Source: Planctomycetota bacterium (GTDB taxonomy: Bacteria > Planctomycetota > B15-G4). From it: a stretch of DNA of 64,000 nt. The stretch is from positions 160,001 to 224,000 of the forward strand of contig JBBQUR010000005.1 in assembly GCA_038212275.1 (NCBI GenBank), read 5' to 3'. A model generated the notes under the pieces. The model was not told the origin of the DNA. It made no database searches and saw nothing but the letters and a program-made list of their open reading frames with translations. Shown here in pieces: positions 44,522-47,656 of this stretch (its first letter is position 1; each line of letters starts with the position of its first letter). The translations under genes and the position numbers were made by a program.

Positions 44522-46035
44522 CGGCGCCGCGTCCGCTCGTGCTGGTCACCGGCTCCACCGGGTACGTCGGCGGGAGGCTCGTGCCGCGCTTGCTCGAACG
44601 CGGCTTCGCCGTGCGCGTGCTCGTGCGCGACCCGGCTCGCCTCGACGCCGGCCGCTGGCCGGGTGTGCAGGTCGTGTGCGGCGACGTGCTCGATCCCGCG
44701 ACCCTGGGCCGCGCGTTCGTCGGCTGCCGGCAGGCCTTCTATCTCATCCACGCGATGGCCGCCGGCGAGGAGGGCTTCGCCGAGCGCGATCGCCGCGCTG
44801 CGCAATCCTTCGGTGCTGCTGCGGCGGCCGCCGGCGTCTCGCGCCTCATCTATCTCGGCGGGCTCGGGGATCCGGACTCCGCGCTGTCACCGCACCTTGC
44901 CAGCCGCCAGCAGACGGGCGCAGCGCTGGCGGAGGCGGGTGTGCCGGTGCTCGAACTGCGCGCGGCTGTCATCGTGGGCTCGGGCAGCATCTCGTTCGAG
45001 ATGGTGCGTTACCTCGTGGAGCGCGTGCCGGTGCTCATCGCTCCGCGCTGGACGGCCACGCGCTGCCAGCCGATCGCCATCAGGGACGTGCTGCACTACC
45101 TGATCGCGGCCGCGGAGTTGCCCGACGCGGACGTCGGCAACGGCCGCATCGTGGAGATCGGCGGCGCCGACGTGCTGACCTACGGCGAGATGCTGCTGCG
45201 CTGTGCGCGTGCGCGCGGCCTGCGCCGCTGGCTGATTCACGTGCCGGTGCTCACGCCCCGGCTCTCGTCGCTGTGGGTGGACCTGGTCACGCCCATTCCC
45301 GCGGCGCTTGCACGTCCGCTCATCGAGGGGCTTCGCACCGAGGTCGTCGTGCGCGGCAACGACGCACGCACACTGTTTCCCGGGATCGATCCGGTGGACT
45401 ACGACGAGGCCGTGCGCCGGGCCCTGCAACGCCAGGGCGCCGGCGGGCTGGAGACGGTGTGGTCCGGCAGCCGCAGCTCGGCCTTCGATCGCTCACCGGC
45501 TCCGGTGGAGACGGCGCAGCGCGAAGGGCTCATCATCGAGAGGCGCGAAGTGCGCGTGGCGGCCGACGCGGAGCGCGTCTTCAAGGTCTTCACGGGACTT
45601 GGCGGCGATCGCGGCTGGCTCTGCGCCGACGCGCTGTGGAATCTGCGCGGCATCATCGACCGGCTCGTGGGCGGGCCGGGCATGCGGCGCGGGCGGCGCG
45701 ACCCCGACGAGCTGCGCGCCGGCGATGCCTGCGATTTCTGGCGCGTGCTGTCCGTGGAGCGCGGCAGGCACGTGCGCCTCGGCGCGGAGATGAAGCTGCC
45801 CGGCCGCGCGTGGCTCGAGTTCTCCGTGGAGCCCGTGGAATCCGTGGAGCCGACGGACCACGACTCGTCGGGAGGCGGCGCCGCCCCGGCCTCCCGCCTG
45901 CGCACGACGGCCATCTTCGAGCCGCGCGGCCTGCCGGGCCTGCTCTACTGGTACGGCCTGCTGCCGTTCCACAAGCTCATCTTCTCCGGCATGGTGGCCG
46001 CGATCGCGCGCCTCGCCGAGGCCCCCGGACCTTAG
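44518..46035 (+). CDS. NAD(P)-binding SDR-like oxidoreductase with DUF2867 domain (YbjT-like)
   Basis: TGSTGYVGGRL, IYLGGL, SPHLASR, GSGSISFEM, CQPIAIRDVL, AEMKLPGRAWLEF and PRGLPGLLYWY motifs. Confidence 0.9.
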   Translation: MTAPRPLVLVTGSTGYVGGRLVPRLLERGFAVRVLVRDPARLDAGRWPGVQVVCGDVLDPATLGRAFVGCRQAFYLIHAMAAGEEGFAERDRRAAQSFGAAAAAAGVSRLIYLGGLGDPDSALSPHLASRQQTGAALAEAGVPVLELRAAVIVGSGSISFEMVRYLVERVPVLIAPRWTATRCQPIAIRDVLHYLIAAAELPDADVGNGRIVEIGGADVLTYGEMLLRCARARGLRRWLIHVPVLTPRLSSLWVDLVTPIPAALARPLIEGLRTEVVVRGNDARTLFPGIDPVDYDEAVRRALQRQGAGGLETVWSGSRSSAFDRSPAPVETAQREGLIIERREVRVAADAERVFKVFTGLGGDRGWLCADALWNLRGIIDRLVGGPGMRRGRRDPDELRAGDACDFWRVLSVERGRHVRLGAEMKLPGRAWLEFSVEPVESVEPTDHDSSGGGAAPASRLRTTAIFEPRGLPGLLYWYGLLPFHKLIFSGMVAAIARLAEAPGP

Positions 46036-46099
46036 TCCGGCAAGCGCGGCGTTAGTCCGGCAAGCGCGGCGTCGATCCGGCAGGCGCGGCGTCGGTCCG
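46032..46099. repeat. 20-bp tandem repeat TTAGTCCGGCAAGCGCGGCG x2 plus a diverged third copy and a partial fourth
   Basis: Read directly; the first unit contains the stop codon of the YbjT-like gene. Confidence 0.88.
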
Positions 46100-46106
46100 A
46101 TAAATG

Positions 46107-46534
46107 GAGGGCGTGAGGTGATCAGTCCATCGATCCGGCGAGGGATCGGGTCATCGCGATCGAGAATGTGGCCGCCGCACCGAAGACTGGGGAACCACCA
46201 CTGGATGTCCTGAGTGTCTGGCGACCGAGGGACCTGCAATGACCTTGTCTGGAGGTGACCTGTCTGGAGGCAGGTCGGAGCCGAACGATGTCCAGATCAC
46301 ACTCACGCCCTCTCTGTGCAAGACGCGCTGATGCCGAGGATGTAACCGTGCTGTGAGGGGAACAGCACGGCGCCCAGAAACCTGTGCAGTCATGCGAGGT
46401 TGCGCGGCGCGCGGCAGGAATTGTTTCGCGCGCAACGGACGTGGGCGGCAGACATCGAGTCTGGAACATGCGGCGCGGAAGACCCGGTGCGCGACATGTG
46501 AAAGGCGTCACGCATCGCGCGATACATCAGAGAG
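46107..46534 (-). ncRNA. putative structured non-coding RNA (206-nt rod plus multi-hairpin domain), family unassigned
   Basis: Nested inverted repeats 46107-46139/46280-46312, 46149-46161/46231-46244, 46170-46176/46220-46226 and 46178-46187/46207-46216, plus further hairpins to 46534. Five C-A mismatches on plus become G-U pairs on minus. No convincing ORF. Confidence 0.55.
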
Positions 46535-46558
46535 TTTCAGTGGATCGCGCGGTCCTGC

Positions 46559-47656
46559 TCAGCGCACGCGGCGACGACGATTGCGCACGTAGTCCACCAG
46601 CACGAAGGGCTGCAGCCGATCCGGCGCGGAGAAGTAGGCGCGGCCCTTGTTGGTGGCGGTGAAGCGCTCCACGAACTCCACCAGCGCCGGGTCGCTGGTG
46701 AGCATGAAGGTGGTGATGGGGATGCCCTGGCGCCGGCACGCGGCGGCTTCGTCGAGGGTCTTGTTGACCACGCGCTCATCAAGTCCGAAGGAGTTCTTGT
46801 AGATCAGGCCGCCTTCTTCCGTGAGCGCCGACGGCTTGCCGTCCGTGAGCATGAAGATCTGGCGATTGCCCTGCTTCTTGCGGCGCAGGATCTGCCGCGC
46901 GAGCTGCAGCCCGGCGCGCGTGTTGGTGTGGAATGGACCGACGCCGATGTATGGAAGCTCGTCGAGCGGCACCTCCCAGGCCTCGTCGCCGAAGAGCACG
47001 ACGTGCAGGTCGTCCTTCGGGTAGCGCGTGGTGATGAGCTCCGCGAGCGCCAGCGCCACCTGCTTGGCCGGCGTGATGCGGTCCTCGCCGTAGAGAATCA
47101 TGCTGTGGCTCACGTCGACCATGAGCACCGTCGCGCAGGACGAGAGCTGCTCGGTCTCGTGCACGCGCAGGTCGCGCTCCTCGATGGAGAGTTCGTCGGG
47201 GCCGGTGCGGCGCAGCGCCTCGGTCAGCGTGCCCGCGTTGTCGAGCAGGCCCAGCGCGTCGCCGAACTCCCAGGGCCGAGTCTCGGGCAGGCGCTCGGTG
47301 CCGGTGCCGGTGGCCGTGCTGCGATGATCGCCGGCCTGCCCGCCGGGGAGCCCCGCGAAGACCGCATCCAGCGAGGAGGTGCGCAGCAGCCGCTCGCCGC
47401 TGGGGGCCAGGCGCACCATGCCGGAGCGGTCCTCCGCGATGAGTTTCTCGCCGAGCAGTTGCTTGCGGACGTCCTCCAGCGTGAGGTCCGCGTCAAAGAG
47501 GTTGTGGCGCCGGCCGAGCTGCCCCAACCACTCCATGGCCTGCTCCGCGTCGCCGTTCGTGCGCAGCAGCAGCTCGAGGAACAGCCGCCGCAGCATGTCC
47601 ATGCGCTGCTCGCGCCGGCGGGCCTGCGGGTCGAAGCGTGAGTAGCGGACGTCCAT
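46559..47656 (-). CDS. VWA domain-containing protein (partner type of MoxR/chelatase-like AAA+ ATPases)
   Basis: MIDAS DVSHS, HTNT and MLTDGKPS motifs; TAGGAT box 11 nt before ATG. Confidence 0.9.
   Translation of the reverse strand: MDVRYSRFDPQARRREQRMDMLRRLFLELLLRTNGDAEQAMEWLGQLGRRHNLFDADLTLEDVRKQLLGEKLIAEDRSGMVRLAPSGERLLRTSSLDAVFAGLPGGQAGDHRSTATGTGTERLPETRPWEFGDALGLLDNAGTLTEALRRTGPDELSIEERDLRVHETEQLSSCATVLMVDVSHSMILYGEDRITPAKQVALALAELITTRYPKDDLHVVLFGDEAWEVPLDELPYIGVGPFHTNTRAGLQLARQILRRKKQGNRQIFMLTDGKPSALTEEGGLIYKNSFGLDERVVNKTLDEAAACRRQGIPITTFMLTSDPALVEFVERFTATNKGRAYFSAPDRLQPFVLVDYVRNRRRRVR

Follow-up and report, generated by a model that had tools for sequence, protein, structure and literature searches.

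The interval at positions 46310-46534 of the window (the whole 64,000-nt stretch of DNA that was analysed, which is contig C5 of a 4.65-Mb genome bin with 70% GC) had been flagged as a second folded domain, with mutually exclusive pairings, of a switch-like RNA that also includes an adjacent 206-nt rod. Our analysis instead points to a probable succession of a gene tail, a hairpin, an ECF-type promoter and the start of the rod, rather than to a second domain of the rod RNA or a switch (Table 1). The flagged interval itself is ordinary, and the new, interesting object is the putatively sigma-linked rod.

Table 1. Features of the locus and of the candidate sigma factor gene (window positions unless another contig is named)
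Feature	Coordinates	Strand	Remarks
DUF2867/NAD-binding gene	ends at 46035	+	3' end faces the gap
Rod, structured small RNA of 206 nt	46107..46312	-	only 3 nt overlap the flagged interval
-10-like element CGTC	46322..46325	-	16 nt after GTTAC and 9 nt from the start of the rod
-35-like element GGTTAC	46342..46347	-	GTTA[CT] invariant in the three rod loci
Alternative helix CTCTCTG/CAGAGAG	46310-16/46528-34		
P1, 3' strand	46318..46328	-	overlaps the -10-like element and the stretch from there to the rod
Closing stem CTGATG/CATCAG	46328-33/46525-30		
Perfect 9-bp hairpin CCGTGCTGT/ACAGCACGG	46346-54/46362-70		
The same hairpin as a whole, -13.9 kcal/mol	46346..46370	-	runs two bases into the start of the -35-like element
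3' untranslated tail of the VWA gene, variable and CG-rich	46371..46558	-	bulk of the "second domain"
Pair GTTGCGCG/CGCGCAAC	46399-06/46429-36		
Pair CAGAC/GTCTG	46449-53/46459-63		
Hairpin CAGAC-UCGAU-GUCUG formed by this pair	46449..46463	-	p 0.95-1.00 in all contexts
13-bp helix GCGCGACATGTGA/TCACGCATCGCGC	46489-01/46508-20		
P1, 5' strand	46547..46558	-	starts at the first base after the VWA stop codon
VWA-domain gene (Rv0959-like), 365 codons plus stop	46559..47656	-	Pfam VWA_2, E 6e-09
ECF-type sigma gene, 549 aa, sigma regions 2 and 4, TPR C-terminal extension	G000:C2:79095-80816, including the motif		locus L040:296-2020

The interval lies within a 523-nt non-coding gap (46036-46558) that separates two converging genes, and the stop codon of the VWA gene (46559-46561) directly abuts the spacer. 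The start of this gene (47656) was picked from the sequence and the codon-phase GC; its atlas neighbours carry PF27098 plus VWA_2, and orthologues are present in 17 of the 42 genomes of the order, its own genome counted. Across the gap, the codon-phase GC signal is absent, and the GC content is 60-65%, compared with 71-75% in the flanks. No tRNA or tmRNA genes were detected in the window, and an Rfam search of 45500-47200 with E values up to 10 yielded three chance-level matches only, namely, ar45 (17.5 bits against a cut-off of 40), S15-Halobacteria (15.4 against 49) and mir-275 (15.1 against 56). A repeat of a 20-nt unit (3.2 copies, 88% matches; 46035-46099) begins at the last base of the stop codon of the DUF2867 gene and has weak look-alikes at C8:118270-118317 of the same genome and in four related genomes.

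The conserved element of the locus is the rod, a real conserved structured RNA with a fold z-score of -6.05 on the minus strand, to which G-U pairs and the lower z-scores point as the sense strand. Homologues are available from three loci: the window, the syntenic metagenome contig L024, which was found with a 20-mer from the conserved part, and genome G006, which represents another genus of the same family. In L024, the VWA gene is 88.8% identical and the DUF2867 gene 78% identical to their counterparts in the window, and the rod is exactly 206 nt long. The rod of G006 was matched by a covariance model of two rods with 31.1 bits (E 7e-5 per genome). Pairwise identity of the rods is 83% (169/203) between the window and L024 and 52% (95/184) between the window and G006. 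In the model-fitted alignment of the three sequences, 95.5% of the cells are paired and 16 of the 61 pairs are changed on both sides, a compensatory count that was reached by 0 of 500 shuffles and compares with 0-3 in slid controls; an independent RNAalifold consensus contains 19 such pairs among 66. The shape is that of one long irregular hairpin with a large asymmetric central bubble, and the letters conserved in all three sequences are C-rich, with CCUCC occurring twice, UCCCUC, and UCCC near the apex. A tandem duplication of 15-16 nt inside the rod (46240-46270) gives rise to the pair of CCUCCAGACA motifs in the central bubble; L024 retains both copies, and G006 two CCUCC motifs. As a guess at targets, the complement of CCUCCAGACA was counted in the genome and occurs twice, against 2.3 expected. 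A coding role of the rod was considered and rejected, with the 15-codon frame in its core being broken by 1-nt indels in L024.

The rod has a different environment in G006, where it follows a DUF481 gene after ~100 nt. A VWA neighbour, which the initial annotation proposed to look for in homologues along with both domains, is retained in L024 but absent in G006, and the spacer of G006 is unrelated in sequence and not unusually stable (z -0.98). Homologues conserving only the 206-nt rod had been named as the finding that would speak against a two-domain element, and G006 is a homologue of precisely this kind. Behind the G006 rod, ~250 nt without a codon-phase signal and with 73-81% GC (L028:1697-1950, G006:C187) are followed by a probably convergent reading frame.

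Other searches did not extend this set. DNA comparison with 40 other genomes of the order gave weak matches confined to the 20-nt repeats (query positions 3-62), and the DNA behind 16 VWA orthologues of the order showed no similarity to the spacer, most of these orthologues having a gene directly downstream. A first rod model (R1) run against 42 genomes produced one good match, G006, along with weak ones at ~20 bits that were not accepted, and a second model (R2) run against 16 + 40 genomes added nothing convincing. Pattern scans of the genome contigs gave 0 matches and, with a second, degenerate pattern, only the G006 stretch. The second metagenome match, L025, has only the 20-mer in common with the window, and Rfam searches of the loci L024 and L028, which carry the rod homologues, gave no match at E values up to 0.1. 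In another genus, the first ~160 nt behind a VWA orthologue (L009; G010:C55) hold a different, long, nearly perfect GC-rich inverted repeat with no similarity to the rod.

All six complementary pairs reported for the flagged interval are present at the positions given in Table 1. The GCGCGACATGTGA/TCACGCATCGCGC helix indeed contains two G-U pairs on the minus strand, although these are not its only irregularities, one A.C mismatch being present too. Folding no more stable than that of shuffles was to have disqualified the element; in fact, the interval beats 200 dinucleotide shuffles on both strands, with z -4.38 on the minus strand (0/200 as stable) and z -3.04 on the plus strand (1/200). Among 28 windows of 225 nt taken from non-coding-like sequence of this genome, the best-strand z-score averages -0.47 (sd 0.90, minimum -2.04), and none reaches -3. 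Much of this excess stability owes to long-range closure and is modest once the region of the promoter-like motif described below is left out: cut at the motif, 46346-46558 on the minus strand has z -2.66 (2/200 shuffles), and the matching piece of L024 has z -1.86 (10/200). The strand evidence had been described as mixed; the minus (VWA) strand is favoured by the fold z-scores, which are lower on this strand in the window and equal -3.10 for the sense strand against -1.11 in L024, and by G-U pairs, the kept pairs including some that would be C.A on the plus strand.

Partition functions were computed on both strands in three sequence contexts (46310-46534, 46100-46560 and 46036-46570). The 9-bp hairpin at 46346-46370 and the CAGAC/GTCTG pair form with p 0.95-1.00 in every context and on both strands. 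In the proposed register, GTTGCGCG/CGCGCAAC has p 0.00, the 13-bp helix at 46489-46520 has a mean p of at most 0.07, and the closing stem CTGATG/CATCAG, which was thought to enclose all of the hairpins, has p 0.00 in every context. The alternative helix CTCTCTG/CAGAGAG attains p 0.98-0.99 only if the sequence is cut at 46310-46534; it drops to 0.00 in 46100-46560 and to 0.47 (minus) and 0.03 (plus) in 46036-46570, so that its proposed competition with the closing stem and the rod end does not carry over to the natural context, where p is 0.00-0.47. Folding of the wider region thus upholds two solid hairpins but makes the enclosing and competing helices hinge on the cut point. The tail contains CGCGCG at a density of 16 per kb, 4.5x the genome-wide 3.6 per kb, and self-complementary words such as TCGCGCGA recur in the spacers of both the window and L024. 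The "mutually exclusive pairings" would arise because a tail so rich in self-complementary CG-rich words lets many helix registers compete.

Comparison with L024 leads to a similar division. Between the two loci, the spacer has diverged far beyond synonymous sites, with 76% identity (153/201) at the four-fold sites of the VWA gene and only two colinear blocks in the spacer (46416-46399 and 46348-46321), the former being the single colinear conserved block of the tail, into which L024 has a 30-nt insertion. L024 keeps 8 of the 9 pairs of the 9-bp hairpin, with the changes C-G to A-U, U-A to U-G and G-C to G-U in the minus-strand RNA, and its counterpart hairpin has 10 bp and -15.2 kcal/mol. These pair counts come from aligned columns of a plain MAFFT alignment, which at this low identity may mis-register helices and did so for P1 (see below); L024 further retains 4 of 5 pairs of CAGAC/GUCUG, three of them changed on both sides, 5 of 8 pairs of GTTGCGCG/CGCGCAAC, 5 of 13 pairs of the 13-bp helix, 2 of 6 of the closing stem and 2 of 7 of the alternative helix. 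Of the six pairings, only the 9-bp hairpin and CAGAC/GUCUG are both robust and retained by L024. L024 likewise has a structured spacer separating its VWA gene from the rod, in which the enclosing helices are not kept. What it has in common with the supposed second domain amounts to two colinear blocks and two hairpins, and one ~430-nt switch-like RNA is not supported, the competing helices not being conserved in L024 and having no counterpart in G006.

The robust 9-bp hairpin is a GC-rich stem-loop, as in an intrinsic terminator. It has no U tract behind it, UUACAUCC coming next, and scans found 0 U-tailed terminators (consensus scan of 45800-46800) and 0 sigma-70-type promoters. It probably serves to terminate or insulate VWA transcription.

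Immediately downstream of this hairpin on the minus strand lies the motif GTTA[CT]-N16-CGTC, separated from the rod by 9 nt in both the window and L024 and by 8 nt in G006. The 16 nt between its two elements vary, and their spacing is exactly 16 in all 12 instances. The motif occurs at 11 sites on both strands of the 4.65-Mb genome; with A/T required at the sixth position, there are 6 sites, against 13 for the reversed control. One copy is located 75 nt before an ECF sigma gene (G000:C2:79170-80816), the product of which matches TIGR02937 with 51.5 bits (cut-off 42.9) as well as Sigma70_r2/r4 and TPR. Full-length orthologues of this sigma factor are encoded in 12 genomes of the family, and the strict motif stands upstream of nine of them, eight at -61 to -89 and the ninth at -225, these distances being relative to estimated starts and the estimate for the ninth being poor. 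From the genome-wide frequency, ~0.005 chance matches would be expected in 12 x 380 nt. For the sigma orthologues of G010, G007 and G005, the upstream search turned up no motif. None of the motif-bearing sigma orthologues has a rod behind it, and among the 24 loci examined, no rods were found behind other motif sites; G006 carries the motif at three sites genome-wide, two of which are those before the sigma gene and the rod.

Autoregulation is usual among ECF sigma factors and offers the standard route to their promoters (PMC7826278). Given that these factors usually drive their own genes and that the motif precedes the sigma orthologues, we infer that GTTA[CT]-N16-CGTC is the promoter used by the C2:79170-80816 sigma factor and that the rod belongs to its regulon, with a predicted transcription start at about 46312-46316; the rod itself begins 8-9 nt past CGTC. 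Further intergenic copies precede genes at G000:C19:63474 (L041), G010:C45:29545-29569 (L083), G000:C27:59273 and C34:126; behind these copies are a gene for a 553-aa repeat protein, a G010 frame with similar repeats, and a transposase-like gene on two contigs. The DxDGDG-type repeats of the 553-aa protein were judged by eye to be FG-GAP/VCBS-like. Such genes are possible further members of the regulon.

The order of elements that we favour can be read along the minus strand. The VWA transcript would end in a CG-rich, hairpin-prone and fast-evolving tail, from 46558 to ~46371, followed by the 9-bp hairpin (46370-46346), which would stop or insulate VWA transcription. An ECF-type promoter would come next, with GGTTAC at 46347-46342, 16 nt, and CGTC at 46325-46322, and the rod would begin 9 nt farther on. 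The rod, extending from 46312 to ~46107-46113, would be the functional product, a small RNA of ~200 nt made when the C2:79170-80816 ECF sigma factor with its TPR tail is active. The rod is most likely its own transcript because a conserved, fixed-spacing motif of the ECF type stands between the supposed domain and the rod. With respect to the VWA gene, the initial annotation was correct as to adjacency and strand; the co-transcription that it considered possible may occur by read-through, although the rod's putative promoter argues for a transcript of its own.

Public sequencing runs, among them X4, X5 and X8, contain small shares of the stretch in several habitats, and four others were compared with the window. 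Sludge DNA (X2) contains a near-identical strain, and a further DNA run (X6) holds one near-identical piece, on the VWA gene only. The compost RNA library X3 contributed one contig of 154 nt (46180-46333, depth 4) that extends 21 nt upstream of the rod, across the -10-like element. In the soil metatranscriptome X7, the rod contig has a depth of 200.4, compared with 2-6 for the other X7 pieces on the window, and the rod RNA is abundant in this soil RNA library. The X3 and X7 contigs, being derived from RNA libraries, show presence, with strand and RNA ends less certain. The X7 contig comprises 287 letters, of which 23 are adapter-like and meet the match exactly at 46113, 97 match 46113-46209 with 2 differences, and 167 more follow. 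The first 30 of these 167 are colinear with 46210-46239 but diverged (18/30 identical). The 167 letters would equal the 103 remaining nucleotides of the rod plus 64 letters, the latter figure being, as we assume, the length of the full Illumina index adapter, which would fit a molecule of ~200 nt; the 167 letters may also be upstream RNA. No RNA-library contigs were found on 46334-46558, although contigs cannot prove absence.

One property of the spacer is unexplained by a pure promoter reading. When the 16 nt after the upstream stop codon were paired with the 16 nt before the rod, the resulting helix, P1, scored -19.9 kcal/mol in the window (p 0.002 against random genomic 16-mers), -22.1 kcal/mol in L024 (p 0.0037) and -17.8 kcal/mol in G006 (p 0.019), G006 alone being a fresh test, the length and place of the paired segments having been set after the folds of the window and L024. 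None of the internal spacer windows paired as well (0/198 in the window, 0/237 in L024 and 0/53 in G006). P1 belongs to the MFE fold of the window, contains G-U pairs, and has its start 0 nt from the stop codon in the window and in G006 and 4 nt from it in L024, behind two unrelated upstream genes. The sense-strand z-scores of the full spacer, -4.4 in the window and -3.1 in L024, are owed to P1.

These observations are accommodated by a doubtful but possible alternative, one long RNA in which read-through from the VWA gene produces a P1-closed tail domain followed by the rod, a stable species of 200-265 nt being cut from the 3' UTR; in that case, either GTTAY and CGUC would be motifs of the RNA or the promoter and read-through would coexist. 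The presence of P1 in all three homologues, right after the stop codons of unrelated genes, and the sense-strand stability bias in the window and L024 favour such an RNA, as do the X3 contig reaching 46333, the X7 contig running 167 letters past 46209, and the location of the rod, in both genera, between a same-strand gene upstream and a probably convergent gene downstream. However, the same motif with the same spacing before 9 of the 12 sigma orthologues, where the rod is missing, is hard to explain as an RNA motif of the rod element. Furthermore, the spacer ranges from ~100 to 285 nt with almost no common sequence, its stability without the motif region is only -2.66 (window) and -1.86 (L024), with -0.98 for the spacer of G006, and the p-values of P1 are modest and partly post hoc. 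P1 also admits a more specific and rather improbable interpretation, a translation-sensing 3' UTR device in which a ribosome at the stop codon would open P1, thereby gating the folding, processing or decay of a pool of rod that is independent of the sigma factor. On this interpretation, P1 (46558-47 with 46328-18) would close the tail into one domain on read-through VWA transcripts, and the device would have been kept behind two unrelated genes in two genera.

At the other extreme, nothing functional may exist beyond the promoter, so that the hairpins of 46348-46558 would be by-products of a CG-rich, indel-prone spacer and P1 a coincidence of GC-rich ends. The 4.5x enrichment of CGCGCG in the tail, the recurrence of words such as TCGCGCGA in the spacers of both species, the dependence of helix choice on the cut, and a divergence far past that of synonymous sites would all be expected on this account, which we nevertheless regard as unlikely because the 9-bp hairpin and CAGAC/GUCUG are kept in L024 through two-sided changes, 0 of 28 background windows reach z -3, and P1 beats all internal windows in three sequences. 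Least probable is a decayed mobile element, such as a MITE with the rod arms as terminal inverted repeats, or a coding remnant or pseudogene. Although the GC content of the gap is below that of its flanks, the rod ends form an imperfect inverted repeat and the rod follows a different gene in each of the two genera, the element is single-copy in the genome and matches none of 72,556 plasmid and 50,697 phage records, the codon-phase signal is absent, one-nucleotide indels fall inside the most conserved core, the differences between the arms are compensatory with G-U pairs on one strand, and the depth in the RNA library is high.

With the sigma-dependent small RNA as the preferred reading, the closest known arrangement is that of the ECF-sigma-dependent small RNAs of enterobacteria. 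MicA, RybB and MicL of E. coli and MicV of Vibrio are likewise encoded by small RNA genes with an ECF-type sigma promoter motif, and MicL is made from within or behind another gene (PMC4102768 and PMC6694218). The motif of the rod also stands before the sigma factor's own gene, and the rod would thus be the non-coding arm of the regulon. The rod has neither a sequence nor an Rfam relation to these RNAs and, at ~200 nt and with the shape of one long irregular hairpin, is unlike short Hfq-type sRNAs, which have a seed and a U-tailed terminator; it also differs in the TPR tail of its candidate sigma factor and in coming from the phylum Planctomycetota.

Small RNAs derived from 3' UTRs that have their own promoter make up the "type I" class. 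Similar to these, the rod directly follows a coding gene on the same strand, has a putative promoter after that gene, and uses the end of a transcription unit. Unlike in this class, ~210 nt of variable structured tail and a hairpin intervene between the stop codon and the rod promoter, and the upstream gene differs between genera. As for riboswitches and attenuators, competing helices are computationally present in the flagged interval but are not conserved, and there is neither a downstream same-strand gene, the next gene being convergent, nor an Rfam match.

The supposed switch-like domain would hold a signal of gene control after all, namely, a putative promoter linking a new, abundant and structured small RNA of an uncultured planctomycete lineage to a single ECF sigma factor. 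No small RNA of Planctomycetota tied to a sigma factor is described in Rfam or in the titles and abstract openings searched, and the matches listed for Planctomycetes small RNA or 6S RNA include nothing relevant at that level. If the link is true, it provides a sigma factor whose motif, GTTAY-N16-CGTC, is defined, a few genes that are candidates for its regulon, and a non-coding regulon output that can be seen in soil, compost and sludge data, and makes sigma-controlled sRNA regulation testable in a phylum hardly studied for such regulation. The locus also exposes a failure mode of fold-based annotation: CG-rich spacers in 70% GC genomes yield many cut-dependent "competing helices".

In size, abundance and shape (~200 nt, with a long hairpin and a large central bubble), the rod is similar to 6S RNA (RF00013) and likewise to the 6S-like RNA Ms1. 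Identification of the rod as 6S RNA was rejected, given that RF00013 gave no match at E 10 in 45500-47200 nor at E 0.1 in L024 and L028; the conserved letters of the rod are C-rich (CCUCC twice, UCCCUC and UCCC), unlike those of 6S RNA. Elsewhere in the genome, a full-length RF00013 candidate is located on the plus strand at G000:C22:73960-74123 (L026:1501-1664), with 34.8 bits against a cut-off of 46.4, and is probably the divergent 6S RNA of this lineage.
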